A DNA stretch of 64,000 nt from Candidatus Doudnabacteria bacterium RIFCSPHIGHO2_12_FULL_48_16. Lineage in GTDB: Bacteria > Patescibacteriota > Doudnabacteria > UBA920 > O2-02-FULL-48-8. The translations under genes were made by a program, and so were the position numbers. Shown one piece after another: positions 4,674-59,790 of the stretch. The notes beneath the pieces were generated by a model that was not told the origin of the DNA, searched no databases, and was given only the letters and a program-made list of their open reading frames with translations. The stretch lies in NCBI GenBank assembly GCA_001780035.1, contig MFEY01000004.1, positions 81,405 through 145,404 of the forward strand, given 5' to 3'. Each line of letters begins with the position of its first letter. The stretch's first letter is position 1.

Positions 4674-4682
4674 GCAATTAAA

Positions 4683-12222: not shown

Positions 12223-12297
12223 GCACCTGTCGTTCAACGGATAGGACTCAAGCTTGCGGAGCTTGTAATCGAGGTTCGATTCCTCGCGGGTGCACCA
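12223..12297 (+). tRNA. tRNA-Arg. The anticodon reads GCG, which is unusual: G34 rather than A/I34.
   Basis: GCACCTG acceptor stem, D-arm GTTC/GGAC, anticodon stem-loop CAAGC-TTGCGGA-GCTTG, T-arm CGAGGTTCGATTCCTCG, then CGGGTGC-A-CCA. Overall similarity to bacterial tRNA-Arg(ACG). Confidence 0.7.
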
Positions 12298-14411: not shown

Positions 14412-15443
14412 CTATTTACTGACGACATGAAGATTGCCGTCGCCGGTATTGATAAAAAACAAACTGCTGCCAATCAACATTAGGTTTTTGGCAAAAATCT
14501 GCTGGTCGGATGAAAAAAAGTCATTCTGACGAAAGGTCAAAAGATCTTCCGTAAGAAAATCGTCCCCGCCGCCGTCTTTTTTGGGAATGGCAGCATAGAC
14601 CGTTTTGCCTTCCTTGTCGACCACTATCTTGTCCAGAGAAGTGTTCAGGTCCAGATCCGTCGCCTGTTTGCTGATCATATCAAATAAATAAACCCGCGGG
14701 TAAGCCGTAATCGCGCTTTGGGAAAATAAAAACCGGTTGGCTGAAATCCAGATTGCCTCCAGATTTTTGCCCGAATCAATTACCGTTAGAATTTCTCCTG
14801 TTTCCAAATTGACCGAATAAATCTTATTGACATTCCCGTCAACGATTGAACGGTAAAGCAAGGCGGTTTTGCCGTCCGGAGAAACTTTAATCTGTAAATC
14901 CGGCCAAAAGACGTCTTTAATTATAACAAAACCCGTGCCATCGCCATTGGCCATGGCCAGCTGCTGATGTTGATTGTCGGCTGATTGCCAGATATAAACG
15001 ATGCGCCGGCTATCCGGCATCCAATCGAGGCTTTTTATGTTGGCTGGCAGGGTAGTATAAACTTTTTTCTGGCTATTATAGTAGTCCTTGATTTCGCCGG
15101 TTGAACCCGAAGATATGGCAATAAAATCTTCGCCGGCCTGCGGCCATAAAATTTTTCGGATTGTGCCGGAAAGCAGCGGCAACGGATATTCGGTCAAACC
15201 TTCACCGTCGAGGTTGATCCGAAACAGCCGTCCTTCAGCATTAAAATACCAAATTCCTCCATTGTTTATCGCTGGAATTGGCGAAACCACCCGGTCGTTG
15301 CCGATTTTTTTTATTTGCGGCGCCGCGGCAATTGGTGGTTTGGTTTGATTTTTTACTTTCATGGCCCAAACCAAAAGCCCGCCGATAACGGCTAAAATCA
15401 ATGCTCCGATTGCCGCGATAATAACAAATTTGCGATTCATCAT
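14412..15443 (-). CDS. membrane-anchored TolB-like beta-propeller (PD40 repeat) protein
   Basis: TM helix (FVIIAAIGALILAVIGGLLVW). PD40-like SPDGKTALLY motif. The start was chosen at an internal Met to avoid overlap with the upstream gene. Confidence 0.4.
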   Translation of the reverse strand: MMNRKFVIIAAIGALILAVIGGLLVWAMKVKNQTKPPIAAAPQIKKIGNDRVVSPIPAINNGGIWYFNAEGRLFRINLDGEGLTEYPLPLLSGTIRKILWPQAGEDFIAISSGSTGEIKDYYNSQKKVYTTLPANIKSLDWMPDSRRIVYIWQSADNQHQQLAMANGDGTGFVIIKDVFWPDLQIKVSPDGKTALLYRSIVDGNVNKIYSVNLETGEILTVIDSGKNLEAIWISANRFLFSQSAITAYPRVYLFDMISKQATDLDLNTSLDKIVVDKEGKTVYAAIPKKDGGGDDFLTEDLLTFRQNDFFSSDQQIFAKNLMLIGSSLFFINTGDGNLHVVSK

Positions 15444-16831: not shown

Positions 16832-18667
16832 CTATTCTCCTGTCACCGCTTGGGTTTGTTGCGCCTGCAGTTCTTTTTTCGCTTCCTCGATCTCGAGGGC
16901 CCGTTTGGGGTCAGTTGTAATTATCTGGTCTTCCATATAGGAAGCGATAATTTTGATCGCCACGTGCTTAATCCCGGCAAAAAATATTCCTTCCCCGACA
17001 TCGGATTCCAGCAGCAGATATTTTTCGCCTTCAGTTAAGAAGAAAGTTTTGGCAATCAGATCCACCGCAGCCGGCGATTGTTTCAACAGCAGCTGAATGG
17101 AGGAATTAGTGACAATTGGCTTGCCGTAAGGGCTTTGTAAAAAGTCGGTAACGTCCTGGGTGATGGTGGTCACGCCCAAATAATATTTGCGGGCGCGCTT
17201 CGCCATGCCGAATAAAAACTTAGCGGAATCATCATGCTGCATCATCCACCAGGCTTCATCTATGACCAAGATGCGTTTTTTGAGCGATGACCGCACGACG
17301 TTCCAGATGTAATTCAAAATGACGTAAATGGCAATTGGCCGGAGCGTATCTTCCAAATCCCGCACCGAAAATACGGCCAGCTGGTTATTTAGATTGATAT
17401 TGGTGGGCTGATTGAAGATGCCGCTGAATGTCCCTTGGGTATATTTGGTCAGCCGCTGCGCCAACGATTCGCCGCCGACCATGCCGGATAAAATTTCAAC
17501 CAGATCCTGCATAATCGGCGGTTCAATATTGTTGAAATTGGAGTTAGCCGTAATGTCTTTTTTGGCATAAGTTTCCCAAAGAGCACGATCCATAATCGCC
17601 TCTTCCGTAGGATCCAGTTTGCCCAACATTAAATTCATGAGCCCCAAAAGGCTGACGACCGCGGCCCGCAGGACATCTTCATTAGTCTCGCCTTCGATGC
17701 CGCGCGGCAAATCAAACGGATTAACCCGGGAATCCGAGTTGAGCGAGATATTGAGGAAGCTGCCGCCGACGGAATCGGACAAATGCTTATATTCGTTTTC
17801 CGGGTCGATGGCGATGACGTCCGCACCAAGCATTAAGGAGCGCAGAATTTCCAGCTTGACCGCGTAACTTTTACCACTGCCCGATTTGGCGAAAACAACG
17901 GAATTGGCGTTTTCCATCTGGAAGCGGTCAAACAAGATCAAACTGTTATTGTGCCGGTTGATTCCATAAAGAATCCCGTCGTTCGAGGTCAGTTCCGAAG
18001 AGACAAAGGGAAACGTCGTTGACAGCGGCTCGGTATTCATATTGGCGGCGATCGCCAGCTCGTCATTGCCGAGCGGTAAGGTGGAATTAAAACCCTGCTC
18101 CATCTGCAGCACGGCGGGCTTGGCGATGATTAATTTCGAGCCAAGCAGCGACTCGAGCGTGGAAGAAAGCTGGTCGAGTTCTTTGAGATCCCCGGCATAA
18201 ACCGTAAAGTAAATAGAGAAACGGAAATATCGTTCCGTGCCTTGCTGCAGCTTGTCCCGCAAAGATTCCACGTCCTGAAAGGCGGTTTGCATCATCGGAT
18301 CGCGGACGTTGCCTTTTTCCTGGCTGATCCGCATGCTGGCTTCGATGCGGCCAACCTGGCTTTTGAGCTTCTTCATAATCTCATCGGTCGACATCGGATA
18401 AATAAACTGGGCCATATCCATTTCCGCATCCATGTTGATGATCGGCGACAGCCAATCAACGGAAACGAACCGCGGGTAAGCCAACACGAAAAATGACCGG
18501 GCAAATTTGCCGGAAATCTCGACCGTATTCTGGCCGACCCGGAATGCCGCCGGAGCAATCAGGTCTTTGAGGGTATTAAGCCCCTCTTTATATTCCCGCT
18601 CCTTCTGCAGGATTTGCCGCTGCAAATCCCGGTTCGGATCGATCGATTGTGATTTAAATAGCGCCAT
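16832..18667 (-). CDS. type IV secretion ATPase, VirB4/TrbE/CagE family
   Basis: Walker A VVFAKSGSGKSYAV and Walker B RILVIDEAWWMM, with VirB4-type N- and C-terminal regions. Confidence 0.75.
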   Translation of the reverse strand: MALFKSQSIDPNRDLQRQILQKEREYKEGLNTLKDLIAPAAFRVGQNTVEISGKFARSFFVLAYPRFVSVDWLSPIINMDAEMDMAQFIYPMSTDEIMKKLKSQVGRIEASMRISQEKGNVRDPMMQTAFQDVESLRDKLQQGTERYFRFSIYFTVYAGDLKELDQLSSTLESLLGSKLIIAKPAVLQMEQGFNSTLPLGNDELAIAANMNTEPLSTTFPFVSSELTSNDGILYGINRHNNSLILFDRFQMENANSVVFAKSGSGKSYAVKLEILRSLMLGADVIAIDPENEYKHLSDSVGGSFLNISLNSDSRVNPFDLPRGIEGETNEDVLRAAVVSLLGLMNLMLGKLDPTEEAIMDRALWETYAKKDITANSNFNNIEPPIMQDLVEILSGMVGGESLAQRLTKYTQGTFSGIFNQPTNINLNNQLAVFSVRDLEDTLRPIAIYVILNYIWNVVRSSLKKRILVIDEAWWMMQHDDSAKFLFGMAKRARKYYLGVTTITQDVTDFLQSPYGKPIVTNSSIQLLLKQSPAAVDLIAKTFFLTEGEKYLLLESDVGEGIFFAGIKHVAIKIIASYMEDQIITTDPKRALEIEEAKKELQAQQTQAVTGE

Positions 18668-18711: not shown

Positions 18712-19017
18712 TTAAATGCTTAATTCTTTAATTTTATTAGCTTTAGATTTCTTTATAATAGCAACAAATATTAAAGTTAATTCGTTTGTTTCTTTCATAA
18801 GCTCTGTCGCTCTATCTTTTAATTCGGGAGTCGTGGTTATGAGCATTCTTAACCAGTGCTTCGTTTCTTTGGATTCTTTTTTACAAATCCCTAATTTATG
18901 CTCGAAATCTTTTCTAGTCTCTGCACAATCTGCCTCACAATAATTCGCTCCCACGCTAGTGCCAGATTTCACCAGCTGCCCAATTATTGGCAAAGTAACA
19001 ACATCTTTTGGGATCAT
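18712..19017 (-). CDS. four-helix-bundle protein (23S rRNA-IVS / Avd-like family). The N-terminus has no canonical start codon.
   Basis: It contains SVGANYCEA...RKDF...ICKKESKETKHWL. Family-typical sequence (DLEERTARFGEEIIKFAR) continues in frame upstream to a stop at 19111-19113. There is no ATG, GTG or TTG in between. Confidence 0.55.
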   Translation of the reverse strand: MIPKDVVTLPIIGQLVKSGTSVGANYCEADCAETRKDFEHKLGICKKESKETKHWLRMLITTTPELKDRATELMKETNELTLIFVAIIKKSKANKIKELSI

Positions 19018-20292: not shown

Positions 20293-20655
20293 TTAAAGAT
20301 TTTTAATAGTTCCCATTAACATTGCGCCAATTTTTTTCGAAAGCGAACTGGCGTTTTCGTACTCAGGTTTAGATATTAATCCTTCAGCAAACGAAAACTC
20401 GATAAGGTATTCGGATTCTTTTAGTGACCCGAACGATATTAGTAAAAAATTTTTGTGACTTTTGTCGCTCATGCGGGCATAACCCTCAATGTAATTTAAA
20501 ACCACAGAAAGACTCGCTCGTCGTAATTGAGAAATTATCCCATATATCTCATTTTTCGGAAATTTACGGGTTAAGGCGTAAATAAAATGGGCAAAATTGT
20601 CCATTTTTTGCCGTAATTGCTGATGGAAAATCATATTTATTTTAGTTTCAAGCAT
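20293..20655 (-). CDS. four-helix-bundle protein (23S rRNA-IVS / Avd-like family)
   Basis: Roughly 120 aa with a four-helix-bundle pattern. Family assignment is by similarity to the other copies, and confidence is moderate. Confidence 0.55.
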   Translation of the reverse strand: MLETKINMIFHQQLRQKMDNFAHFIYALTRKFPKNEIYGIISQLRRASLSVVLNYIEGYARMSDKSHKNFLLISFGSLKESEYLIEFSFAEGLISKPEYENASSLSKKIGAMLMGTIKNL

Positions 20656-29029: not shown

Positions 29030-29383
29030 TTAATTTTTGAGCTTGAAGATCATTGAATAAAGCATTTTTTGTACTTCTTCTAACAAGGCTTCTGCCCTAA
29101 AGTAATCAATATTAGAATACTGTTCTTTGGAAATAACAACCTGAGTTTCCAGTTCCGCAGCTGAACCCATAGCAATGCCCAAAAACTGAATAAACTCCCT
29201 CTGGTGATTCCTTCGATATCCTTCCGCGATGTTCGACGGGATTGCAACTGCTGCTCTTTGCATCTGAGAAACTAATCCATACATTTCAGTCTTAGGCATT
29301 TGTTTAGTGGCTGAATAGATCTCGTTTACGAGCTTAATTGCTTTTTGCCAAACTATAAGTTCTTTGAATGAATTTACTTTCAT
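29030..29383 (-). CDS. four-helix-bundle protein (23S rRNA-IVS / Avd-like family)
   Basis: MKVNSFKELIVWQKAIKLVNEIY...QMQRAAVAIPSNIAEGYRRNHQREFIQFLGIAMGSAAELETQ is a textbook family signature. Confidence 0.75.
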   Translation of the reverse strand: MKVNSFKELIVWQKAIKLVNEIYSATKQMPKTEMYGLVSQMQRAAVAIPSNIAEGYRRNHQREFIQFLGIAMGSAAELETQVVISKEQYSNIDYFRAEALLEEVQKMLYSMIFKLKN

Positions 29384-40378: not shown

Positions 40379-40699
40379 TTATTTATCCTTAAGCTTTGAA
40401 ATCATGACGTAAAGCATTCTCTGTATTTCATCTAAAAGCGCTTCAGCTTTGGAATAATCGATATCCGTATATTGTTGCTTACAAATAATAAGCTGGGTCT
40501 CGAGTTCAGCAGCTGATGAAATGGCAATCGCTAAAAATTGTATAAATTCTGCTCTATGATTTCTCCTATAGCCTTCTGCAATGTTCGAAGGAATTATAAC
40601 GGCAGCCCGCTGCATTTGCGAGGATAGACCATAAATTTCATTGACCAATTCAATTGATTTTTGCCAAACAATGAGTTCTTTGTACGAATTTAGTTTCAT
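40379..40699 (-). CDS. four-helix-bundle protein (23S rRNA-IVS / Avd-like family). Paralog of 29030-29383 with an internal deletion of about 9 aa.
   Basis: MKLNSYKELIVWQKSIELVNEIY...QMQRAAVIIPSNIAEGYRRNHRAEFIQFLAIAISSAAELETQ. The start was moved to an internal Met (MKLNSYKEL) by homology with 29030-29383. Confidence 0.65.
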   Translation of the reverse strand: MKLNSYKELIVWQKSIELVNEIYGLSSQMQRAAVIIPSNIAEGYRRNHRAEFIQFLAIAISSAAELETQLIICKQQYTDIDYSKAEALLDEIQRMLYVMISKLKDK

Positions 40700-40812
40700 A
40701 AATATTTTAGTTATTTTTCTCAACGCTCTACGCTTGGCAATAAAAAACAGGGAGCGACGCTTGTGCATCACTCCCCGCAAACAGACGAAGGTGGCCTGAC
40801 CGCAAGATCAGA

Positions 40813-41292
40813 TCACTGAACGATCAGCGTCGGCGACTGGCGAGAATCCGCGCCGTAGGCGTCGCTGATCTGCGCCATCGGGGTGTATACGCCGGTCTTC
40901 TTCGCCACGAAGTCGGTGAGCATGTTGGCGTTGAAGCTTGCTTGCACAGGGCTGTCCGGGCGGCTGATCTCGGCAACGACGTTGCCGGCCGGATCAAAGA
41001 CCTTGAGGCTCCGATTCACGTTGCGGTCCGTGTTGACCGTGGCTATCATGACAACCCGGATATTCGAACCCATGGGCACGGGTCCGGTCACGAGTGGGCC
41101 GCGCGGATCCCCGAGTCCCGTCGGCGCGTAGTGGAACTCGATGCCGGTGATGACGGGGGCCGTGGGCGTAGTTCCCACCGGCGGCGGATCCGGCTGAGTC
41201 GGGCTCCGCTTTCCGCAGGCGGCGAGGGCGCTGAGCATCAAGCACAGCGCCAAGATCACGACGACGTTCGACGCGGCGTTGCGCTTGGTCAT
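40813..41292 (-). CDS. lipoprotein (GC-rich island gene 1)
   Basis: Lipobox LSALAAC. Strong SD GGGAGG sits 7 nt before the ATG. GC is high. Confidence 0.5.
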   Translation of the reverse strand: MTKRNAASNVVVILALCLMLSALAACGKRSPTQPDPPPVGTTPTAPVITGIEFHYAPTGLGDPRGPLVTGPVPMGSNIRVVMIATVNTDRNVNRSLKVFDPAGNVVAEISRPDSPVQASFNANMLTDFVAKKTGVYTPMAQISDAYGADSRQSPTLIVQ

Positions 41293-41402
41293 TACATCCT
41301 CCCTTTGGATGTGTGAAGGCCCTTGTGGGGCCGGTTGTGTGCTAGTGGTTCTATCGTAACTGGGAATTATACACCTGAACAGGGATTTTGTCAAGTGGAA
41401 AA

Positions 41403-41438
41403 GTCAAAAAAACGGCTGTGGTTAGCCGTTTTTTTGAC
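41403..41438 (-). terminator. Rho-independent terminator (bidirectional)
   Basis: GTCAAAAAAACGGCT-gtggtt-AGCCGTTTTTTTGAC. Confidence 0.65.
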
Positions 41439-41529
41439 TTTATATAATCTTTAAATAAGCATAAAAACAGGGGTTTCCCAGAACTCTCTGGAAAACCCCG
41501 TATAACGAGCACCTGCCACAGGTCGCCGA

Positions 41530-42399
41530 CTACCGTTGCAGCGTCGTGGTAGCGGCTGCTAGTACCGATTCCAATTCAGCGGCGAACTGAGCCGTGAGAT
41601 CGCCCTTGCTGTCCCCGTCTTCCACCCAGGGCTTCTTGTTGATGCCGCCCTCGTGTTTGCGCTGGAAGACCCGAACGCGAACAGTAGCAGCGCCGTTGTT
41701 ATCGATGACCTGGACCACGGCCCTGTCTTCACAGCGATTGCCGATGCCGCAGCGTCGATTGTGACCCCACTCGGTCGAAATCCGATCGCCCTCGATCTTG
41801 TAGTCGGCGTTGCGGCTTTCGAAAAACGTTTTCAACGTTTTCGTTACCGCGATAGGCGCCAGCGTTGTCGGAATTACTGCCGGCTCGCCGTCCTTCAACT
41901 TCTTGCCGTCAACGGTGCTGCTGTCCTTCTTACCGCCGACGAGCCCCGCCAGTCCAAACATCGGAAACTTGCGGCCGCGGGAGGCGGGTTTCTGGTCAGG
42001 AGCCTCCGGGGTAATCGTTGGAGCGGTCGGAACGGTGGTGGCCACAACTGGCGTCGCGTTCACTGGTGCGGGTTCGGGCGAATACGGTTTGCCCAAGACG
42101 GCGGCAATGACTCGGCCCGAAAGCTTGACGGCCTTGAGCGCGATGAGGCCGTCGGCCGAAGTATCAAACGATTTATTCGACGCCGCCTCGATCGCGTTCA
42201 CGATCTCTTGTTCGGTGAACCCGGCGGCGTGCAGTTTGAGCACGTCTTCGTTCGTGAATGGTCTTGGCTTCGCCGATTCGGCAGGAGCCGGTGCTTGTGT
42301 CGCGGCCGCGGGCTTGGGCTTGGCCTTGGTAGCCTGCGCCCAGACCACGCTTCCCGACAGGACGAAACAGATTGCCGCGACAAACAGACGACTTCTCAT
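41530..42399 (-). CDS. secreted protein (GC-rich island gene 2)
   Basis: Signal peptide LFVAAICFVLSGSVVWAQA. SD GGAGG sits 5 nt before the ATG (MRSRLF...). Confidence 0.45.
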   Translation of the reverse strand: MRSRLFVAAICFVLSGSVVWAQATKAKPKPAAATQAPAPAESAKPRPFTNEDVLKLHAAGFTEQEIVNAIEAASNKSFDTSADGLIALKAVKLSGRVIAAVLGKPYSPEPAPVNATPVVATTVPTAPTITPEAPDQKPASRGRKFPMFGLAGLVGGKKDSSTVDGKKLKDGEPAVIPTTLAPIAVTKTLKTFFESRNADYKIEGDRISTEWGHNRRCGIGNRCEDRAVVQVIDNNGAATVRVRVFQRKHEGGINKKPWVEDGDSKGDLTAQFAAELESVLAAATTTLQR

Positions 42400-42556
42400 A
42401 ATTTCCTCCATCAAGTTGTGATCAATTCAGTAGCCTAATTGTAGTCCAAACCCAATTTAAAATCAAAACGCCAAACTACGGGAATAGCTTGGCTACAGTG
42501 ATAAAAAACGAGGGGTTCTCCGGAAAATGAATCCCGAAAAACCCCTAGCGACCGCT

Positions 42557-43219
42557 TCACCTCGGCCAGTATACGACCTGGACTAAGCCCTTGTAGGCGC
42601 CTAGGGTGTCCAGGCCATACGCGGCGACCGTGACTGTGAGATGCCGCGACGGCGAAGCGGTTGCTCCGACGCCGAGACCGAAGATCGGCAGCCAGGAATG
42701 GCCTTCGAAAATTTCGACCACGCTCTCGGAAGATATGGGCGGTCCATCGTATCGCCGGGTTCCGGGCGCGGGCTGGAACTTGGCGACTGAACCGCTGACC
42801 TTCCCGACCCCGCCGTGAACTGTAAGCATGGGCGCCACCGGCCACTTGGTCGGGCCGAAGCGGAACTGCCTCTCGACCTTGAGACCGCGAATCGCGACGT
42901 TGTCCGTGACAAAGCGGTAGAAGCCGTCGTTGGCCGAGCTCCCGTCTTTTATTCGGATCTGCGTGAACGTAATCCGGATCATGGAATGACCCGGGCGGCC
43001 GCGCGCCGCGCCGACATCGAATGTCCGGCCGGTCATGTCGAGCTCCAGCCCGATCTTCTCCATGAACGTGGACAGCGGCCCGCTGTCGAGCTTGCCGAGT
43101 GTCCCGCCCGCCGTCGGCGCCCATTGCGAGTCCTCTTTGGATTGCGCCGCGACCGGTGAAGCGGCACAGAGGGCCGCCAGACCAACCACCATCGCCACCA
43201 TCAGTCGTAACCGTGTCAT
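42557..43219 (-). CDS. secreted protein (GC-rich island gene 3)
   Basis: Signal peptide MVAMVVGLAALCAASPVAAQ. SD AGGAGG sits 6 nt before the ATG. Confidence 0.45.
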   Translation of the reverse strand: MTRLRLMVAMVVGLAALCAASPVAAQSKEDSQWAPTAGGTLGKLDSGPLSTFMEKIGLELDMTGRTFDVGAARGRPGHSMIRITFTQIRIKDGSSANDGFYRFVTDNVAIRGLKVERQFRFGPTKWPVAPMLTVHGGVGKVSGSVAKFQPAPGTRRYDGPPISSESVVEIFEGHSWLPIFGLGVGATASPSRHLTVTVAAYGLDTLGAYKGLVQVVYWPR

Positions 43220-43402
43220 GTTGATCCTCCTCAGAATCTGACGTGTTGATTGCCGTGATTGCCTCGCATCATAACTCAAGCAAAGCCCCGCAGTCAAGGC
43301 CGCGGGGCTTTATAAAAACTCTAGAATTATTTGATCTTGCCCTACTCGCCGATGCGGCCGGAGACGCCATCTAAAACCTTAAGTTTTTTTAGACCATATT
43401 TC

Positions 43403-45172
43403 CTACTGCACCGTCGTGCCCTTATTGTTGAGCGTATCGTCGTCAATTGACGCTGTATCCACCACCGCAATTGGGACGGTTTGCAAGGCTTGCCCCACAA
43501 ACGCATCAGTACCGGTGGCCGCAATGTCTTTGAGCAGAATCATGGGCTTGTTGCGGTCCGAGTCGGTCGGCGTAACTTCGATCTGGAATGTAACTTTGGC
43601 CGCGGGCGAAAACTTGCCGGTGAATGCCGGCACGGTTCCGAGGAGCCAGCGAATCTTGCCGGAATTGGAATCATAAACCAAGCGGCTCTTTTCCGAATCT
43701 GGCACGATGACATTTTTCCAAGCGGAGGGCGCTAGGGGCATAGAGGCCACAACCTGGGTATCGGTGGAATCGTTGGAGGAATTGGACAGCAGGAACGTCA
43801 CAGCGAACAGGGTCGGCTTGCCGACTTCCATGGGCGCGCTACCGGAAACAAAATCCCCCTGCACCTGCAGATCAAGGCTGGAGATGAGTTTCAAAGATGA
43901 GGCCAGAGCCTTGGTCGGCTTACTCGCTTCGTCGGAGCTGATGCTGGCGGAAACCGCGACCGACTGGTTTTTGAGATTGCTGCCGATGGTCGATCTAAGC
44001 GGCACGCTGAACCGCAGCCGGCCGGCTTCGTTCGGCGACAGGATCGACAGACCGGGACTGGTCGCGGCTTTCCAGGTGATCGTATGATTGGTGATGATGG
44101 CGTCGGAGGCGACAATCCGGGCATAATCAATGGCCGGGCTTTCCAGCTGAACCGCAATCACCAGATTGTTGAGACCGATGTTGCCCTTGTTGGAATAATC
44201 AAGATCGTAATTGATCGTCTCGCCGAGCCGGACAAAATCTTTGTGATCGGCGCTCACGCTAAGGGATAGCGCGGCCGGGACAATCCGGAACGTGGCCGTG
44301 GCCGTAATCTGCGGCGCAAAGTTGTTATTGATGATCTGGCCCAGCCAGGCCGTGACCAGCTGTTGTGAATTGGCGTCCCCGGTAAAGCTGCCCGTGATAT
44401 CGAGGCTGGCGGAACTGTTGGTTAGGAGCTTGGGCAATTTCCAAAAATTGTTGCCACGCGACGGGGGTTGCTCACTGGAGCTGAAGATATAACCGGGCGG
44501 GTAGCTTAATTCCACGGCCAGATTGTCGAAATCCTGAGGCGTGACATTGGTAAAGGTCACGGAAAAAGTCGTGTCCTGTCCGCCGATGACATCGACCGGG
44601 CCCGCAATGTCCATGGTCAGATCCGGCGGCAGGATGTTGGTGTGGATGGATTCCTCGATGACAAAAATCGAATTGAAATTGGACAGCTTGTATTGCAGCC
44701 TGGCTTTGATTTGCTTGTCCTCGCCGGTCGAGCCGGATAATTTGCCGCGCACCACGACCGCGCTGTCCTGGCCGGCCGGCACCGGCGGGAGATTAAAGCT
44801 CGATCCCCCGGCCATGGTCGGCATGGGCGTGGCGGATTTAAACGTCCAACCCGAGGGATAAAAAATTTCCAGCGTCAGCCCGACCAAGTCGGCGTTCTCA
44901 CCGTTGCGGTAAGTGATCGTATATTCCGCTTCGTTGTTGGAGGTAATCTGCGACGGGCCCTTGATCAGGAGCAAAACGTTGCTGGACTTGGGCGCAATGC
45001 TGTTGTTGCCCGACAGGAAATACCAAAAAATTCCGGCGATCAGAAGAAGGGCCGCGGCGGCGGCGATCCAGACCGTGTTTTTTTTGAACCAATGCCGAAA
45101 CCCCCTGTCCGGGTTATTATACTCAACCGGAATCTCGCTGCGGGTTTTATCGTCTAAAATTTGATCTTCCAT
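43403..45172 (-). CDS. membrane-anchored surface protein with DUF11/CARDB-like repeat domains
   Basis: N-terminal TM helix (VWIAAAAALLLIAGIFWYFL) followed by repeated beta-sandwich-like modules. Confidence 0.4.
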   Translation of the reverse strand: MEDQILDDKTRSEIPVEYNNPDRGFRHWFKKNTVWIAAAAALLLIAGIFWYFLSGNNSIAPKSSNVLLLIKGPSQITSNNEAEYTITYRNGENADLVGLTLEIFYPSGWTFKSATPMPTMAGGSSFNLPPVPAGQDSAVVVRGKLSGSTGEDKQIKARLQYKLSNFNSIFVIEESIHTNILPPDLTMDIAGPVDVIGGQDTTFSVTFTNVTPQDFDNLAVELSYPPGYIFSSSEQPPSRGNNFWKLPKLLTNSSASLDITGSFTGDANSQQLVTAWLGQIINNNFAPQITATATFRIVPAALSLSVSADHKDFVRLGETINYDLDYSNKGNIGLNNLVIAVQLESPAIDYARIVASDAIITNHTITWKAATSPGLSILSPNEAGRLRFSVPLRSTIGSNLKNQSVAVSASISSDEASKPTKALASSLKLISSLDLQVQGDFVSGSAPMEVGKPTLFAVTFLLSNSSNDSTDTQVVASMPLAPSAWKNVIVPDSEKSRLVYDSNSGKIRWLLGTVPAFTGKFSPAAKVTFQIEVTPTDSDRNKPMILLKDIAATGTDAFVGQALQTVPIAVVDTASIDDDTLNNKGTTVQ

Positions 45173-45910: not shown

Positions 45911-48900
45911 CTATTCTAATTTTAGAGATATCTTCTTGCCATCCACGTCAATTTCCGTCCCGCCGGATTCTTTCACCATCTTCGAAATATACTTCTTTTT
46001 GGTATCAATCAACTCCATTGCTGCGGCTAAATCCGAGTCATCTGTATTATAACTCAATGTTACCGGTTGCCCAACTTTAAACCCGAGCTTTTTGCGCATT
46101 TCCTGCACCGCGCGGGTAAGTTCCGCTGCCAGGCCTTCCTGCTTGAGTTCTGAAGTAATGTTTAGATCAAATTCCAGCTTGTCCCCTGCTTTGACGGCTT
46201 TGACGTTCAATTCGTCCGCGAGAATTTCTTCAAACTCTTGGGCCAGTTGCTTGCCTGAATAACCAAACGAATTCAACGGCTGGCGCAGTTTGATGTTCGC
46301 CGCCTTGCGCAAAGAGTGCCCCTGCTCCACCAGATCCCGCACCATTTGCATTTGATTCAAGACTGCTGTTTGATCTGGGGTCAATTCCAATTGCTCCGGC
46401 CATTTGGCCAAGTGAACCGATGGCACTTCCAGACGGCGGTTAAGATTTTGATATATCAGTTCTCCGAGATAAGGCATGGTCGGGGCGATAACTTTGGCCA
46501 ATGTCAGCAGGGCGTGGCGCAAGGTGCCAAAAAAATGAGCATCTTTGCGGCCGCGACTTCTGCGCAGATACCAAGTTGATAATTCATTGATGTAATTTTC
46601 AATCGCGCGCGTGGCTTTAACCGTATTGTAACCATCGAGCTGATCGGTAACTTCATTCACAAGCTCTTGAGTTTTGGCCACGATCCAAAGATCAAGAACT
46701 GATTTGAAATTTGAAATTTGAAATTTGAAATTTTTCTCAGGTTCCCAACCCGCCTCGTTGGCATAAGTCACGAAGTAATTAAACACATTCCATAGGATCA
46801 AAATATTCTTGCGGTAAATTATGCCCAATTCCCGTTCGCTGAAATTCAAATCCTCGGCCTGCATGACCGGCGAATTCATCAGGTAAAACCGCAGGGCGTC
46901 GACCCCGTATTTTTCGATCATCAGCCACGGATCCGGATAATTGCGCTTGGATTTGCTCATCTTCGCCCCATCCTCAGCCAGGATCGTGCCAGTGGTCAGG
47001 ATATTTTCAAATGGCGCAGAATTGAACAAAATCTGGGCCATGACATGCATGACGTAAAACCAGGCCCGGGTTTGGGGCAAGTATTCCACGACAAACTGCC
47101 CGGGAAACCGGCTCTTAAAAATTTCTCCTTGGGCGAACGGATAGTGATATTCGGCAAACGGCATGGAACCGGCTTCAAACCAGGAGTCAAAAATTTCGCT
47201 GATGCGATGGGCCGGCTGGCCACATTCTTTGCATTTGATCACAACTTCATCAATATATGGCCGATGCAAATCCAGAATGCTGACATCAATCTCATAAATC
47301 TTATCAGTGTGGTTATTCGGATTCTCCTGTTCCGAGCCATAATGCTCCAACAACACCCATAAGGGGTCGCCGTGACCCACGACCACTATGCGTTTGCCTT
47401 CGTATTTTTGATTAATTTCATTCACGAACGCCACCATTCGCTGTTGCACCTGGGTCAGCGTTTCGCCGCCTTCCGGCGCTTCTTTCCAAATATCATGATG
47501 CGCAATATAATCATAAAATTCTGAGACCGGCCGATTGTCATAAATGCCGGTGTCGTATTCACGCAAGCGGGCATCTGTCATTACCGGAGCCCCTAAGTGC
47601 TTACCGATAATTTCGGCGGTGGATTTGGTGCGTAAAAAATCCGAGGAAAAAATTAAATCGACGCCACCTCTGTCTTTGAGGCCTTGGGTGACTTTTTCAG
47701 CATTCTCGAATCCCTTGTCCGTCAAAGGGTATTTATCCGTTTCGAGTTTAGTGCTACTGACCCGCAATGTATTTTTGGTGGATTGTCCATGGCGCACAAA
47801 ATAAAACGTATTTCGGTTCAGACCAAGATCTTTGATGGATCCCACTACATTCACATGTCCGACTTCGCACTTCCAGACCGGAATCGGATTGCCCCAGTAG
47901 CGGTTGCGGGAAATATTCCAGTCCGGCGCGGCTTCCACGGATTTCTGGTAGCGGCCATGCTTAAGATGGTCAGGATACCAGTTCATCTGCGCCTCGTTGG
48001 TGCGCAACAAATCCGGTTTCACTTTCTGCACATTTACAAACCAGGCCGGAATGGCATTGTAGAACAGCGCCGTGCCGCAACGCCAGCAGTGCGGATACGA
48101 GTGCTGGTGCTGCTGTTTGGCAAACATCAATCCCCTGGCTTCCAAATCTTTCTTGATTGTTTTTTCCGCCGCTTTGAAATACTGACCCCGGATCAAACTT
48201 GGCGCGTTATCGTTAAAAATGCCTTTTTCGTCCAAAAGCGGGACAACCGGCAGGCCTTCTTTAAGCCCCAAATTGTAATCGTCTTCGCCATAAACCACAG
48301 CCGTGTGCACCACGCCGGTGCCATCTTCAATATTAACAAAATCCGCGGCGTAGACTTTGTAAGATTTGTCCGAGTGAACCGCCGGCACGTCGAACAGGGG
48401 CTCATAGGAGAGACCGACAAGTTCTGAACCCTTAAACGGAAAATCGAGAATCGAGAATCGAGAATCGGGGTGCAATTTCATGAGATCGTTCACCCGATCT
48501 TTAGCCAAGAGATAAACCTCCTGATTCATTTTTACCTTCACATAATCAATATCCTTACCAACGGCGAGAGCTACGTTACCGGGTAGAGTCCATGGTGTTG
48601 TGGTCCAAGCCAATATAAAAGTATTAACGAATTTCGGATTACGAATTGCGAATTTTACGGTCACCGCTTCTTCCGTCACATCCCGGTAGCTATTATCCAT
48701 AGCAACCTCAAAGTTGGACACCGGCGTTTCGCAGCGCGGGCAATACAGCAGCACCTTGCGGCCTTCGTAAATCAAACCCTGCTCGTAAACCTGTTTGAAC
48801 GCCCACCAAACGGATTCCATATAATCCCGATCCATGGTCTTGTAGGAATTGTCGAACTCCACCCAGCGCGCGATCCGCCGGATGGTTTTGCGCCACTCGG

Positions 48901-49285
48901 CGACATACATCAGCACCATACTGCGGCAGGTTTCGTTGAATTTCTTGATGCCCAACTGTTCGATCTGCTTTTTGCCGGAAATTTTGAGTTCGCGTTCGAC
49001 AATTTCTTCGATCGGCAGGCCGTGGCAATCCCAGCCCCAGCGCCGCCGGACAAACCGGCCCTGCATCGTCTGATAGCGCGGGATTGCGTCTTTGACGACC
49101 GACGGCAAAATGCTACCGTAGTGCGGCAGGCCGGTGGCAAACGGTGGGCCATCATAAAAAGTATAAGGTTTCCCTTGTTTGGTTTGCTCCAGGGATTTCT
49201 GAAAAATCTGGTTGTCCTCCCAAAACTTCAGTATCTCTTCTTCCAGTTTCGGAAAATCTGGCTTTGGTTGTATTGGGTTAAACAT
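45911..49285 (-). CDS. ileS: isoleucyl-tRNA synthetase, carrying an inserted histidine-phosphatase (PGM-like) domain and several short-repeat insertions
   Basis: HIGH-type motif PPFATGLPHYGSIL, KMSKS, and an anticodon-binding C-terminus. The segment of about 176 aa from FYFVRHGQS to VVVGHGDP (residues about 493-668) matches GpmB/SixA-type histidine phosphatases. Confidence 0.9.
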   Translation of the reverse strand: MFNPIQPKPDFPKLEEEILKFWEDNQIFQKSLEQTKQGKPYTFYDGPPFATGLPHYGSILPSVVKDAIPRYQTMQGRFVRRRWGWDCHGLPIEEIVERELKISGKKQIEQLGIKKFNETCRSMVLMYVAEWRKTIRRIARWVEFDNSYKTMDRDYMESVWWAFKQVYEQGLIYEGRKVLLYCPRCETPVSNFEVAMDNSYRDVTEEAVTVKFAIRNPKFVNTFILAWTTTPWTLPGNVALAVGKDIDYVKVKMNQEVYLLAKDRVNDLMKLHPDSRFSILDFPFKGSELVGLSYEPLFDVPAVHSDKSYKVYAADFVNIEDGTGVVHTAVVYGEDDYNLGLKEGLPVVPLLDEKGIFNDNAPSLIRGQYFKAAEKTIKKDLEARGLMFAKQQHQHSYPHCWRCGTALFYNAIPAWFVNVQKVKPDLLRTNEAQMNWYPDHLKHGRYQKSVEAAPDWNISRNRYWGNPIPVWKCEVGHVNVVGSIKDLGLNRNTFYFVRHGQSTKNTLRVSSTKLETDKYPLTDKGFENAEKVTQGLKDRGGVDLIFSSDFLRTKSTAEIIGKHLGAPVMTDARLREYDTGIYDNRPVSEFYDYIAHHDIWKEAPEGGETLTQVQQRMVAFVNEINQKYEGKRIVVVGHGDPLWVLLEHYGSEQENPNNHTDKIYEIDVSILDLHRPYIDEVVIKCKECGQPAHRISEIFDSWFEAGSMPFAEYHYPFAQGEIFKSRFPGQFVVEYLPQTRAWFYVMHVMAQILFNSAPFENILTTGTILAEDGAKMSKSKRNYPDPWLMIEKYGVDALRFYLMNSPVMQAEDLNFSERELGIIYRKNILILWNVFNYFVTYANEAGWEPEKNFKFQISNFKSVLDLWIVAKTQELVNEVTDQLDGYNTVKATRAIENYINELSTWYLRRSRGRKDAHFFGTLRHALLTLAKVIAPTMPYLGELIYQNLNRRLEVPSVHLAKWPEQLELTPDQTAVLNQMQMVRDLVEQGHSLRKAANIKLRQPLNSFGYSGKQLAQEFEEILADELNVKAVKAGDKLEFDLNITSELKQEGLAAELTRAVQEMRKKLGFKVGQPVTLSYNTDDSDLAAAMELIDTKKKYISKMVKESGGTEIDVDGKKISLKLE

Positions 49286-49649: not shown

Positions 49650-50405
49650 TTACGATTGGGCAAAAGCGGCCTTCAAATTTTGCCGGGCGGTTTCCAGAGC
49701 GGCCTTGAATGCCTGGTTGGCATCCCGCACCGCCTGGTTGCGGGTTTGGGTCAAATTCTTAATTTGCCCACCCAGCTTGTCCAGGTCTTTGTTGGCCTGC
49801 TGAAATTTATCTTTCGCCGCCTGCTGGGCGCTCATAAGTGTCCGGCGCACGGTGGCGGGATCAACCGAAGCGGCGCAATCGGTTTTGGCTTTGGCCATAG
49901 CCGCCGCAACATCGGCCTTAAACGTGGTGGCATTGGCTTTGATGGCATCCTGCCGTTTGGTAACCAGACTTTCCTGACTGGTGCGGAAATCCGCCATCGC
50001 TTTATCGACGGCGGCTTTGCGCACCTCTTGCGCGGCCGCAACGGCAGCCCTAAACGCGGCTAGGGCCGAGAGCTGCGCCTCGGTCAGAGCGTCGGATTCC
50101 AAATCGGAAAGGCGTTCATCCAAATCGGCTTTGGCCTGGTCGCGTTTTTCCTGAACCTGTTTCACACGACTCTCTTTGCGCTCCTTAAGCTGATTGAACA
50201 CCTCCGTTCGCTTACTGCCCCGATCCTGATCGACTTTGACCAGTTTGGAATTGACTTCACCGGTAACGTTGGCAATCCGGGTGCAGAAATTTTTGGCATC
50301 CGAAGCTGGGGCGGTCGGTTTGTCTTCGCGGGCCAGGCCCAGCGCCGGGGTCAGAATGAATCCCAGGGTCGCCAGAATCAAACTGAAATTTTTAATAGTT
50401 CGCAT
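49650..50405 (-). CDS. secreted coiled-coil protein
   Basis: Signal peptide (MRTIKNFSLILATLGFILTPALGLA), then an Ala/Lys/Gln-rich helical sequence. Confidence 0.4.
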   Translation of the reverse strand: MRTIKNFSLILATLGFILTPALGLAREDKPTAPASDAKNFCTRIANVTGEVNSKLVKVDQDRGSKRTEVFNQLKERKESRVKQVQEKRDQAKADLDERLSDLESDALTEAQLSALAAFRAAVAAAQEVRKAAVDKAMADFRTSQESLVTKRQDAIKANATTFKADVAAAMAKAKTDCAASVDPATVRRTLMSAQQAAKDKFQQANKDLDKLGGQIKNLTQTRNQAVRDANQAFKAALETARQNLKAAFAQS

Positions 50406-50702: not shown

Positions 50703-50987
50703 TTACATCCCGCACCTTTTTGCTTGGAGAATACTGTTTTCGAGTCTGATCTTAAGTTCACTTAAGCCCTTACCGTGATGTTTAAGTTTCTTTTCTCTGG
50801 CTGCCGCATCATCCACCGAAAGGTATGCTTCGTAATAAATTAAGTGCCAGGGACCAAACTTACTAGTGAATCCGTTCTGGCCAGAGTTATGTTCAAATAT
50901 CCTTCTGTCCAAATCGTTAGTGATACCAACATAAAATTTTCTTTTCGCGGATGGTTCCAGATTATACAGAATATATGTATAGTACAT
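50703..50987 (-). CDS. GIY-YIG nuclease family protein (UPF0213-like)
   Basis: YYTYILYNLEPSAKRKFYVGITNDLDRRIFEHN...AAAREKKLK. Confidence 0.7.
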   Translation of the reverse strand: MYYTYILYNLEPSAKRKFYVGITNDLDRRIFEHNSGQNGFTSKFGPWHLIYYEAYLSVDDAAAREKKLKHHGKGLSELKIRLENSILQAKRCGM

Positions 50988-52803: not shown

Positions 52804-53253
52804 ATGCCTTCCCTCGCCAACAACCGCAAAGCTTTCCATGATTACTCGATCGAATCCACGCTCGAGGCCGGCTTGGTCTTGGCCGGCCATGAAGTCAAAA
52901 GCATCCGCAACGGGCAGGTCTCGCTCAATGGCGCCTATGTCACGATCCGCCTGGGCGAAGCCTGGCTGCGCAATGCGTATATTGGCAAATACAAACAAGC
53001 CTCGGGCCTGGAGGGCATCGATGAATCCCGCGAACGAAAGCTGCTCCTCAATAAACACGAGATCATTAAACTGCAGGATCTGCTCAAATCCAAAGGCTTA
53101 ACTCTGGTGCCGCTGGAAATTTACACATCCAAGGGGCGGCTGAAATTAAAAATCGGCGTCGGAAGAGGCAAAAAGCAATTCGACAAGCGCGAATCGATAA
53201 AGAAGAAAGAACTTAAAAGAGGCTTGGATAGAAAGATGAGGACGCGGGTATAA
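52804..53253 (+). CDS. smpB: SsrA-binding protein SmpB
   Basis: NRKAFHDYSIE...AGLVLAGHEVKSIRNGQVSLNGAYV. Confidence 0.9.
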   Translation: MPSLANNRKAFHDYSIESTLEAGLVLAGHEVKSIRNGQVSLNGAYVTIRLGEAWLRNAYIGKYKQASGLEGIDESRERKLLLNKHEIIKLQDLLKSKGLTLVPLEIYTSKGRLKLKIGVGRGKKQFDKRESIKKKELKRGLDRKMRTRV

Positions 53254-53727
53254 CTACCTCTCTGTCGGCTTCGCCGACATCTCTCCTGGAAGGAGAGATG
53301 AACTGCAGGTTAATTAAATATATGAAACTGCTTGAAAATTTAATTTTGGGTTCCCGGAGTTTAAGAAAAAACCAAACGCCTTGGGAAAATAAACTTTGGT
53401 ATAATCTCAGAGCCAAAAGATTTAAAGGATACCGTTTCCGAAGACAATTTGTTATTGGTTACTATATAGTTGACTTTTGCTGCTTTGAAAAGAAACTAAT
53501 TATAGAATTAGATGGGGGCCAACACAACGAAGAACAAACTCAACTAAATGATAAAGAAAGAACCGAATTTCTGAAATCACAAGGCTTCAAAGTAATAAGA
53601 TTTTGGAACAATGATATTCAAAAAAATCTCCCGGAAGTTTTAGAAACTATATTAGATAACTTGAAATAAAAAAATCCCCTCCCCTTCCAGGGGAGGGTGG
53701 CGCGAAGCGCCGGGTGGGGTAGTTATT
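53250..53727 (+). mobile_element. TIR-bounded element of about 478 bp carrying a DUF559 endonuclease gene (family B head, gene, family C tail)
   Basis: TATAACTACCTCTCTG (left) and GGGGTAGTTAT (right) are inverted repeats. A gene-less B+C version sits at 54316-54429. The element's first bases overlap the smpB stop codon. Confidence 0.5.
53322..53669 (+). CDS. DUF559 endonuclease-domain protein (Vsr/restriction-endonuclease-like fold)
   Basis: LRKNQTPWENKLWYNLRAKRFKGYRFRRQFVIGYYIVDFCC...IELDGGQHNEE. An alternative start lies at 53298, inside the repeat. Confidence 0.65.
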   Translation: MKLLENLILGSRSLRKNQTPWENKLWYNLRAKRFKGYRFRRQFVIGYYIVDFCCFEKKLIIELDGGQHNEEQTQLNDKERTEFLKSQGFKVIRFWNNDIQKNLPEVLETILDNLK

Positions 53728-53886: not shown

Positions 53887-54271
53887 TGGTGGAGCTGGGG
53901 AGAATTGCACTCCCGTCCAAAAATTTTTGGCAAACACGTCTACAAGCTTAGACCGCTTTATGGTGTCCCCCAAGCAATAGAAGCGGACCAAAGCTGCTTG
54001 AGGTGAGCTCTAAGTGTCTTTTGGCTGTCGAGCACCGGCCAAAATGAGTCCGGATAATATAACACCTGTGATCCGCGCACAGACTTTACGGAGCAGATGG
54101 GTTATCGCTTAATTAAGCAACAGCCAGAGCAGGAGAGAATGCAAAAGCATTCTTAATTCTGCTTACCAATGAATTGGCATTTATGATTTGCCTTATTTTT
54201 TTAACCGAGAAATTAGGCTAATCGGACTTGCGGTATCTGTCAAAGAACTCTTGTCGAAGCTTAGCAGCCCC
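53887..54271 (-). ncRNA. ssrA: tmRNA (ssrA)
   Basis: Minus-strand 5' end GGGGCUGCUAAGCUUCGACAAGAG and 3' end GGACGGGAGUGCAAUUCUCCCCAGCUCCACCA (T-arm plus acceptor with a G3-U pair). An internal tag-like ORF ends ...SPALAVA-UAA. It is adjacent to smpB. Confidence 0.75.
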
Positions 54272-54483: not shown

Positions 54484-54999
54484 ATAGCATTTAGAACTCG
54501 CATCAACAATCAAATAAGAGTCCCGGAGGTCCGCTTGATCGATGACCAAGGCAAAATGCTTGGGATCATGAAGATCGAAGAGGCAATGGCTTTAGCCAAA
54601 GAGCGCGAAGTCGATTTGGTTGAGGTCTCCCCCACGGCCAAGCCGCCGGTGGTCAAGCTTCTGGACTACGACAAATACCGCTATCAGCAGGAAAAAGCGG
54701 CGCAAGAAGCCCGAAAAAAAGTAAAAAAGGTTATGGTCAAAGGGATCCGGCTTTCCGTCCGCATCGGTGACCACGATCTGGTGTTCAAAGCCAAGAAAAC
54801 CTCGGAGTTTCTGGCCGAAGGCCATAAAATCAAGGTTGATGTGGTTATGCGCGGCCGCGAACAGGCCCACCCGGAATTGGCTTTCAATCTCATGAAGCGG
54901 TTTCAGGAAACTATCACCACTCCCTTTGTCAAAGAAACTGGCCCGTCCCGCATGGGGGGAACTATAAGTATAATCATAGCTCCCTCAAGCAAATCCTAA
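54484..54999 (+). CDS. infC: translation initiation factor IF-3, probably with a non-AUG (ATA/ATT-class or TTG) start
   Basis: The in-frame upstream extension ...INNQIRVPEVRLIDDQG matches the IF-3 N-terminus. No ATG is available; the ORF caller used TTG at 54535. A TATAAT box lies at 54454-54459. Confidence 0.75.
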   Translation: MAFRTRINNQIRVPEVRLIDDQGKMLGIMKIEEAMALAKEREVDLVEVSPTAKPPVVKLLDYDKYRYQQEKAAQEARKKVKKVMVKGIRLSVRIGDHDLVFKAKKTSEFLAEGHKIKVDVVMRGREQAHPELAFNLMKRFQETITTPFVKETGPSRMGGTISIIIAPSSKS

Positions 55000-59306: not shown

Positions 59307-59790
59307 TATAACTCCCCCGCTAACCCTCAGCTGAGGCACCCCCTCTTACATTAAGAGGGGGTGAACTGCAGATTAATTCTTTGGGCAGTATTCTAAGATT
59401 TTGTCGTATATCCCGTCGATATTTTCTATTACCTCATTATTCCAAAATCTTAATTCTCTAATATCGTTAGCTAATAAATAAGCCGTTCTTTCCTGATCAT
59501 ATTCTTTTTGTTCATCAGCGTGCTGACCTCCATCTAACTCAATGGCTAACCTCAATTCGGGACAATAAAAATCGAGAATATAATACCCGACGCTATATTG
59601 CCTTAAAAATTTATAGTCATTGCATTGTTTATTTCTTAGTACCTTCCAAAGTAACGATTCACAATCAGTTTGATTTTTTCTTAACTGCTGTCTTCGTGAT
59701 TTAATTTTCGGGTTGTTATATATTAGCTTCATCTTTGCGTTAGATGGCAGTTAACCCTCCCTTAATGTAAGGGAGGGTTAGGGTGGGTTA
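59307..59790. mobile_element. Family A element split by a DUF559 gene: a roughly 484-bp putative full-length copy of the family A double-hairpin element
   Basis: The left half is TATAACTCCCCCGC...GCACCCCCTCTTAcatTAAGAGGGGGT (59307-59362). The DUF559 gene lies at 59373-59732. The right half is AACCCTCCCTTAatgTAAGGGAGGGTTAGGGTGGGTTAT (59751-59790). Confidence 0.5.
59373..59732 (-). CDS. DUF559 endonuclease-domain protein
   Basis: LRKNQTDCESLLWKVLRNKQCNDYKFLRQYSVGYYILDFYC...IELDGGQHADEQ. It is a paralog of 53322-53669. Confidence 0.65.
   Translation of the reverse strand: MKLIYNNPKIKSRRQQLRKNQTDCESLLWKVLRNKQCNDYKFLRQYSVGYYILDFYCPELRLAIELDGGQHADEQKEYDQERTAYLLANDIRELRFWNNEVIENIDGIYDKILEYCPKN

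Follow-up and report, generated by a model that had tools for sequence, protein, structure and literature searches.

We analyzed a 64-kb stretch of DNA (the window) from Candidatus Doudnabacteria, an ultra-small bacterium of the candidate phyla radiation (CPR) represented by metagenome-assembled genomes (MAGs) from the Rifle aquifer, and focused on positions 40740–43320, a GC-rich island carrying three genes for exported proteins, here designated C, B, and A. The original prediction, made from the sequence alone, took this island for a single block acquired recently from a donor with high GC content and Shine-Dalgarno (SD) sites, conceivably the host of an episymbiont. Our results support a foreign origin, but argue against a recent event and against a single block. 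The probable explanation, in our judgment, is that C, B, and A are separate genes for envelope proteins (a predicted β-barrel protein, a predicted helix-grip protein resembling the BamC N-domain, Flpp3, and KA1, and a lipoprotein, respectively), which were transferred long ago from a high-GC, Vicinamibacterales-like diderm lineage and have since been domesticated.

Composition of the island

The GC content of positions 40740–43320 was 0.590, compared with 0.481 for the remaining window, and was the highest among all 2581-bp windows (mean 0.485, standard deviation 0.040, runner-up 0.544). The jump in composition noticed originally was borne out by this sliding-window calculation, against a background of approximately 48% rather than the 45% that had been supposed; the mean of the 64-kb window was 48.6%, and its composition was patchy. 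The rise in GC content started at approximately 40720–40760 and stopped at approximately 43180–43220. The elevation was limited to the coding sequences of C, B, and A, with GC contents of 0.60–0.65 and GC contents at third codon positions (GC3) of 0.71–0.84, compared with a GC3 of approximately 0.57–0.66 in the host gene classes. The spacers within the island had GC contents of 0.42–0.47, and host intergenic DNA had a GC content of 0.41. Non-coding DNA of native type thus surrounds each of the three GC-rich coding sequences, and the island is not the contiguous foreign block that had been proposed. The long Arg-rich open reading frames predicted antisense to the island genes were present. Gly, Ala, Arg, and Pro together account for a share of 0.35 in the three proteins, compared with 0.25. 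Amino acid composition was rejected as the sole cause of the GC content, because GC3 and the choice between two-fold codons also deviate.

Codon usage and probable source of the coding sequences

The island genes preferred GC-ending two-fold codons far more than host genes did (fractions in the island and the host, respectively: AAG, 0.76 and 0.35; AAC, 0.76 and 0.40; TAC, 0.80 and 0.39; TTC, 0.72 and 0.36; GAC, 0.68 and 0.38), and CTC was also used more often (0.41 and 0.13). The codon vector of the island lay at a distance of 0.76 from the genes of contig L025 and of 1.15–1.47 from the host gene classes, which were themselves 1.57–1.95 away from the L025 genes. L025 is a 94-kb contig with a GC content of 0.645 and a native homolog of C, and its SecA is 72–80% identical to those of Vicinamibacterales (Acidobacteriota) MAGs. 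Other native copies of C were found on contigs with a GC content of 0.67 (L020 and L024). The codon bias of highly expressed genes was considered as a cause and rejected: the bias of the island is absent from the translation genes encoding IF-3, L35, L20, and SmpB, indicating that it is not the expression-linked bias of this organism.

In codon usage, the three genes are unlike both resident and highly expressed genes and like those of another lineage, as expected of acquired genes, and their GC and GC3 values also set them apart, with a single host gene reaching a GC3 of 0.72. The predicted foreign origin from a high-GC lineage was supported by the codon distance of 0.76 from Vicinamibacterales, the native occurrence of C at GC contents of 0.65–0.67 in high-GC bacteria, the interleaving of CPR copies of C with those native copies in the tree, and the outer membrane (OM) barrel fold of C. 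The coding sequences of all three genes most likely derive from a high-GC diderm lineage, and the transfer would have proceeded from the diderm to the CPR bacterium, with an Acidobacteriota-like source. Searches of 5.8 billion clusters, 1.84 billion representatives, the GTDB representatives, and plasmid and phage collections turned up no close donor.

Age of the genes

We compared the window with L010, an NCBI metagenome contig that is syntenic with its right flank. At the same place, L010 carries a gene for a 466-aa protein, an ortholog of B (64% protein identity), and an ortholog of A (60%). These three genes have GC contents of 0.61–0.64, GC3 values of 0.78–0.82, and the SDs GAGGAGG, GGAGG, and AGGAGG, in an SD-less background with a GC content of approximately 0.45. 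The 466-aa protein, encoded where the window has C, is unrelated to C, and its gene is likewise GC-rich and SD-led.

Flanking host proteins were 48–68% identical between the window and L010, the same range as B and A. Four-fold sites and synonymous substitutions per site (dS) were compared with regard to passive amelioration and active upkeep of GC3, at a divergence near saturation. Four-fold sites were near the random expectation in both classes (island, 0.45–0.50 versus 0.34; flanks, 0.33–0.38 versus 0.26–0.30). The dS values calculated by the Nei–Gojobori method (NG86) were 0.84–1.13 for the island, compared with 2.85 or saturation for the flanks, and non-synonymous divergence (dN) was similar. 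The claim of a recent acquisition was not supported by this comparison, as B and A stand at the same site in L010 with the same identity as their flanks, a dS of approximately 0.84–1.13, and conserved signals, and no close donor was present in the databases searched. The transfer of B and A would have preceded the split of this Doudnabacteria lineage from the L010 lineage, at a depth of approximately one synonymous substitution per site. The coding regions would have been only partly ameliorated since then, so that donor-like codon usage remains.

Expression signals

The expression units were defined by −35 and −10 hexamers, an SD at 4–9 nt from the start codon, a hairpin with a T-run past the stop codon, and conservation in orthologous loci. 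Matches of 12/12, 10/12, and 9/12 to the promoter consensus were found, together with three terminators, all on the minus strand. The putative promoter of gene C (43268–43297; TTGACT-18-TATGAT, 10/12 match) lies within or beside the terminator hairpin (approximately 43282–43311) of the upstream gene, which encodes a 589-aa protein. It is followed by the SD AGGAGG (43226–43231), 6 nt before the ATG at 43219, and, 3′ of the gene, by an intrinsic-terminator-like hairpin with a T-run (42511–42546). For gene B, we found a putative promoter (42438–42466; TTGATT-17-TACAAT), the SD GGAGG (42405–42409), 5 nt before the ATG at 42399, and a 3′ terminator hairpin (41470–41499; GGGGTTTTCC...GGAAACCCC and a T-run). 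The promoter block (TTGATTTTAA..GGGTTT..ACTACAATTAG), the SD region (ATGGAGGAA), and the terminator are all kept in L010, as is an unstranded inverted repeat with perfect 18-nt arms and A/T runs on either side (41400–41441), which resembles a bidirectional terminator.

The putative promoter of gene A (41366–41394; TTGACA-17-TATAAT) matches the consensus at 12/12 positions and is also kept in L010, where its region, TTGACAAAAT..GTATAATT, is conserved nearly base for base. The leader of gene A can form a hairpin (41294–41312) with the stem ACAUCC/GGAUGU around the SD GGGAGG (41298–41303), in which the 6-bp stem holds the SD and an outer stem extends to the AUG. The same hairpin with identical stems is present in L010 (approximately 4777–4799), with z-scores of −1.6 and −2.5 for the two sequences, and it may be a translational control element. 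A terminator-like hairpin 3′ of gene A (40747–40778) marks the right-hand edge of the GC-rich stretch. The sequences immediately upstream of the start codons are gAGGAGGatcaacATG for C, tGGAGGaaattATG for B, and aGGGAGGatgtaATG for A.

The promoter regions and SDs of A and B, the two terminators past B, and the leader hairpin of gene A are thus nearly unchanged in sequence between the window and L010, compared with near-saturated synonymous sites. The spacers have GC contents of 0.39–0.47 in the window and L010, and of 0.53–0.70 in the acidobacterial contig L025. Judged from these signals, C, B, and A would be transcribed individually, as every one of them combines a promoter-like site and an SD with an export signal and a terminator. 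The conservation of host-like regulatory DNA in both genomes suggests that the genes are long-resident, expressed, and under purifying selection. In their domesticated state, each would lie between host-like AT-rich spacers that supply a promoter of the sigma-70 type, intrinsic termination, and a strong SD.

Predicted envelope proteins

As predicted originally, the three genes encode one lipoprotein (A, with a lipobox) and two proteins with cleavable signal peptides (B and C). Gene C (42557–43219, minus strand; GC 0.62, GC3 0.75) encodes a secreted protein of 220 aa, with a signal peptide ending in ...PVAA/QS. AlphaFold2 models, which were built on 7–8 sequences, predict that the Sec signal peptide is followed by a small, closed, all-β barrel of eight strands that matches solved OM proteins and resembles OmpA, NspA, and OprF-N. 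The family is very rare, with 76 representatives in 1.84 billion proteins, and none was detected when the C profile was run against 185,579 GTDB species representatives. Its members have signal peptides and C-termini rich in aromatic residues; one member is a fusion with CsgG/FlgO, and the gene of another lies 18 bp from an OMP_b-brl gene. The C-terminus of C is ...VQVVYWPR, and those of relatives are ...TYWPK, ...TYWFK, and ...VYLFGAR, which are aromatic-rich with a last residue that is not aromatic. The closest structural counterparts are small eight-stranded OM barrels, including the OmpA N-domain, OprF-N, NspA, OmpX/OmpW, PagL, Thermus TtoA, and Legionella Dot/Icm-associated porin III. Gene C differs from them in a sequence identity of only 7–15% and no match to the Pfam OM protein models, in the non-aromatic final residue of ...YWPR, and in being borne by a CPR bacterium, a member of a group proposed to have no outer membrane (PMC12102498). 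A predicted OM-type barrel in a presumed monoderm is an unusual aspect of this locus.

Gene B (41530–42399, minus strand; GC 0.60–0.61, GC3 0.71) encodes a secreted protein of 289 aa with a cleavable signal peptide. The model predicts a four-helix module at the N-terminus (residues ~45–105) and a helix-grip domain at the C-terminus (~170–289), joined by a disordered linker rich in Pro and Ala. The resemblance to the helix-grip, KA1, BamC N-domain, Flpp3 (DUF3568), and START-Bet v 1 proteins is at the fold level only, with 8–13% identity. B differs from the helix-grip folds in that it matches no family hidden Markov model, adds the N-terminal four-helix module, and has no lipobox. A sequence search of the PDB with the B profile returned nothing meaningful, and distant relatives were found on contigs with GC contents of 0.58–0.63.

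Gene A (40813–41292, minus strand; GC 0.65 and GC3 0.84 counted from the ATG) encodes a lipoprotein of 159 aa. Its signal, MTKRNAASNVVVILALCLMLSALAAC/GKRS, comprises an n-region, an h-region, and the lipobox LAAC, which matches the pattern [LVI][ASTVI][GAS]C; the ortholog in L010, its sole homolog, has ...SAFSAAC at this position. Genes for Lgt and LspA did not appear in the annotated parts of the window, where no search aimed at them was made. Neither B nor A belongs to a family in Pfam or NCBIfam. Taken together, the features of C, B, and A give all three the appearance of diderm-type envelope proteins, which would act at the cell surface, possibly in host contact.

Recurrence in related lineages

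A coding-only signature, comprising a GC-rich coding sequence with an SD and AT-rich spacers, was present on homologs in at least seven related lineages. The related loci L016/L027 and L026 share the genes for ArgRS, IleRS with a His_Phos insertion, recO, and a DUF11 protein of approximately 580 aa, followed by C; the L016/L027 proteins are 40% (C) and 41% (IleRS) identical to those of the window. An SD precedes C in each context of lower GC content and AT-rich leaders (L016, L111, L026/L023, L017, L110, and L028), and all seven CPR-borne C homologs are SD-led, usually with a GC content 0.08–0.13 above that of their neighbors and with AT-rich spacers. Among 100 genes from six loci, SD-led genes deviated from the locus median GC by +0.087, compared with −0.010 for the others (p = 5e-6), and signal peptides were encoded by 11 of the 14 SD-led genes, compared with 30 of the 86 others (p = 0.003).

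In a neighbor-joining tree of C, the L016 and L111 copies joined the high-GC copies (bootstrap 98). The L026 copy, 41% identical to that of L016, fell in a separate clade (95), and the L016 and L026 hosts are close to each other (59% identity in ProRS, 54% in the DUF11 protein). The window copy paired with that of L017 (100). The CPR-borne copies are thus not monophyletic, forming at least three groups, and the disagreement of the tree with the hosts indicates at least two transfers or replacements at the locus. Such incongruence was weak for B, and A has two sequences only. Entry of family C into related CPR genomes, or its replacement there, would have occurred repeatedly at one locus, which lies downstream of the genes for recO and the DUF11 protein.

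Other SD-led or adjoining genes were seen at these sister loci, and the SD-led ones had no family in Pfam or NCBIfam. A radical-SAM/SPASM/PqqD gene of the peptide-maturase type adjoins the C homolog in L016 (10873–12237) and L111 (478–1788), and a GC-rich, SD-led lipoprotein gene lies near C in both contigs (14135–14686 and 2841–3005, respectively). Directly upstream of C in L026 are genes for two secreted proteins of 372 and 328 aa (3576–4694 and 4697–5683), which have very strong SDs (AAGGAGGAG and GGGAGG) and an ordinary GC content of 0.46–0.47, indicating that SD use and GC elevation are separable in this group.

Shine-Dalgarno usage

The leaders of nearly all other genes in the window are AT-rich and lack an SD. 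The canonical SDs predicted for the island genes, GGGAGG, GGAGG, and AGGAGG, were found at a spacing of 5–6 nt; the claim that only these genes possess such sites was slightly overstated, as four others carry SD-like sites, namely 49650–50405 (AAGGAG, spacing 6), infC at 54535–54999 (GGAGG before a TTG start), 15455–16828 (AGGAG), and recO (GGAGG, spacing 11). The gene at 49650–50405 (minus strand) lies outside the island, has a GC content of 0.56, and encodes a 251-aa signal-peptide protein without a family match. Its codon usage is host-like, suggesting that some native-looking genes here use SDs as well.

No rRNA gene occurs in the 64-kb window. The anti-SD motif has been lost in about half of Parcubacteria (Tsurumaki et al. 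2022, PMC9297842). As in such SD-poor genomes, most genes of the window are AT-led without an SD, and a small class keeps strong SDs; unlike in those genomes, the genes that keep them here are GC-rich, encode exported proteins, and are probably foreign. The SD-using donor of the original prediction is possible but not required, as the native high-GC homologs were mixed, with AGGAGG in three and a weak or no SD in three. The strong SDs would most likely have been retained because GC-rich, structured 5′ ends are unable to use AT-rich, SD-independent initiation.

Integrity of the assembly and mobility genes

An abrupt change of GC content in a metagenome-derived contig may point to a chimera or a contaminant join, and a check for mis-assembly had been called for. 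A B protein identical to that of the window is encoded by 17 contigs, which come from ENA, JGI, Logan, and the ANAN16 Rifle scaffolds and cover several samples and assemblers. In all of them the gene order is recO, the 589-aa DUF11 protein, C, B, A, the 4HB gene, and the genes for a 165/183-aa and a 1040-aa protein, and the DNA is 100% identical over both island junctions. The C and IleRS proteins are also deposited in four Candidatus Doudnabacteria RIFCSP MAGs from the Rifle aquifer, on contigs of up to 255 kb, and the arrangement recurs in sister genomes. A chimeric assembly is excluded, and the chance of a contaminant join is negligible.

Family searches of the proteins revealed no integrase, transposase, or other mobility gene in or beside the island. 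No flanking direct repeats or terminal inverted repeats were found at the island, only short imperfect chance repeats; the nearest tRNA genes are more than 28 kb away; and the plasmid and phage collections contained no match. The hairpins said to delimit the island exist, but are ordinary terminator-like structures, one per gene plus that of the upstream gene, and not the ends of an element. A mobile element was considered and rejected, as neither mobility genes nor bracketing repeats were found, only terminator hairpins.

Alternative explanations

Several observations weigh against an old transfer of separate genes from a high-GC diderm. The island was the top raw outlier in tetranucleotide usage (z = 3.0), but no longer an outlier after correction for base composition, so this signature adds nothing beyond GC content and codon usage. 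The host gene at 43403–45172, a neighbor of the three genes, reaches a GC3 of 0.72. The best non-CPR homologs are just 35–45% identical, so that donor and direction are inferred. Neither C nor 54 members of its family match any Pfam or NCBIfam model, those of OM proteins included, and the OM-type barrel of C rests on a structural model with which a membrane-inserted and a soluble protein are both compatible. The taxonomy of L010, L016, L026, L017, L111, L110, and L028 is based on synteny and composition only, and the neighbor-joining tree of C was built from 225 columns of few fast-evolving proteins and has weak backbone support. The dS of the island, at approximately 1, is below that of the flanks, as expected if the genes are younger than the host split or if their synonymous sites are constrained. 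The GC3 of 0.78–0.82 in L010 (background approximately 0.48) lies above the expectation from simple amelioration of a donor at approximately 0.83 at such divergence. The last two observations hint at constraint or later exchange.

A recent, strain-specific gain of one 2.6-kb block from a high-GC, SD-using donor would account for the sharp edges and strength of the compositional contrast, the donor-like codon usage, and the little visible amelioration (GC3 0.71–0.84). We consider it highly improbable and already largely refuted, given that B and A keep their position in L010 and have diverged as much as their flanks, with a dS of approximately 1, that the internal spacers are host-like in GC content and contain conserved host-type signals, and that neither a close donor (in the cluster, representative, GTDB, plasmid, and phage sets) nor mobility genes or flanking repeats were found. 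Alternatively, no transfer may have occurred, and C, B, and A may be native CPR genes whose GC content results from amino acid composition and codon selection for expression or mRNA stability, within a native subclass of SD-using exported-protein genes. The signature on orthologs in many related lineages, the GC offset that follows the host (about +0.12 to +0.16 over backgrounds of 0.41 to 0.48), the abundance of Gly, Ala, Arg, and Pro, the SD-led genes with ordinary GC content in L026 or host-like codons at 49650–50405, and the host-like regulatory DNA are all consistent with this possibility. It appears rather unlikely, however, because the translation-apparatus genes lack the codon preferences, the codon vector is acidobacterium-like, CPR copies are intermingled with high-GC diderm copies in the C tree, which does not track host relatedness, and the OM-barrel fold is native to diderms.

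Continuing turnover, in which the locus is a hotspot that re-acquires envelope genes from high-GC neighbors, possibly hosts, so that the copy in each lineage is fairly young and B and A appear orthologous owing to exchange between related CPR bacteria, has a modest chance of being correct. It would explain why the copies of C do not form one clade, why C was replaced between L016 and L026 although these hosts are close, why L010 has the unrelated 466-aa gene in place of C, why the island dS is below that of the flanks, and why GC3 is still high in L010. Separate imports are hard to square with promoter, leader, and terminator DNA of B and A that is conserved and host-like in both genomes; in addition, B and A match their flanks in dN, and no recombination or mobility machinery was found at the locus. 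A further scenario, which we hold to be quite improbable, is a host-contact module: a cell without an outer membrane would export the diderm-type barrel C with A and a membrane- or lipid-binding B, and these would target, or become embedded in, the OM of a diderm host with high GC content, such as an acidobacterium, from which the genes were captured and occasionally recaptured. If true, it would explain how donor-like coding sequences, SDs, and the OM protein fold persist in many related CPR lineages while the regulatory DNA is native.

Other genes in the window

The 4HB gene said to lie beside the island was confirmed at 40379–40699 (minus strand; GC 0.37) by matches to PF05635 (E = 4e-25) and TIGR02436; it is not part of the trio. 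Four such low-GC (approximately 0.31–0.37) 4HB/23S_rRNA_IVP (bAvd-like) genes were found in the window, scattered among host genes and all on the minus strand (18715–19017, 20296–20655, 29033–29383, and 40382–40699). The copy next to the island differs between strains by an indel in its 5′ part (L001 and L007 compared with the window), and L010 lacks this copy at the site. With low-GC 4HB genes as well as a GC-rich trio, the genome is a mosaic whose composition deviates both upward and downward. Two DUF559 (Vsr-like endonuclease) genes of low GC content at 53298–53666 (plus strand) and 59376–59732 (minus strand) and a small GIY-YIG gene at approximately 50703–50987 (minus strand) are apparently selfish cassettes; one DUF559 copy is located between smpB (52804–53253) and the gene for transfer-messenger RNA (53887–54271).

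The IleRS gene (45911–49285, minus strand) encodes an inserted histidine-phosphatase (His_Phos_1) domain, an insertion that the distantly related L016 shares. ARAGORN identified a tRNA-Arg with the anticodon GCG (12223–12297, plus strand), and CGC is the commonest Arg codon here. Bacteria normally read CGY codons with an inosine-modified ACG anticodon, and the GCG anticodon may indicate a different decoding strategy. Two genes for sigma factors of the extracytoplasmic function type are present (7853–8443, minus strand; 9452–9994, plus strand), one of very low GC content (0.34). A VirB4/TraG-like type IV secretion ATPase is encoded at 16832–18667 (minus strand), consistent with the widespread occurrence of type IV secretion systems in Patescibacteria (PMC12102498).

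Implications

The closest known kind of event is the ordinary horizontal acquisition of genes for accessory surface proteins. In the framework of Lawrence and Ochman, acquired genes are reportedly recognized by atypical GC content and codon usage, which ameliorate gradually. The island resembles such transfers in its atypical GC content, GC3, and codons, the incongruent phylogeny of C, and the orphan accessory surface proteins it encodes. It differs from them in that no integrase, tRNA site, or direct repeats were found and the spacers are host-like, and in that the signature has persisted through a speciation and a synonymous divergence of approximately one substitution per site and recurs in at least seven related lineages. 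A coding-only signature with SDs that persists or recurs in an SD-poor CPR lineage is unusual, as is the replacement of C at a fixed locus.

The importance of the locus would be modest if it were merely an old, slowly ameliorating transfer of genes for hypothetical proteins. It offers a natural case for studying how long a foreign codon signature persists and how SDs are kept up in mostly SD-free genomes, and coding sequences that are GC-rich and led by a strong SD, amid an AT-rich, SD-poor background, provide a simple search signature for more such genes in CPR genomes. Molecular leads on the interaction of CPR/Patescibacteria with their hosts are very few, and for Doudnabacteria there are none. 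The locus described here is a reproducible, conserved, and, to judge from its signals, evidently expressed set of diderm-type exported proteins in a lineage thought to be monoderm.

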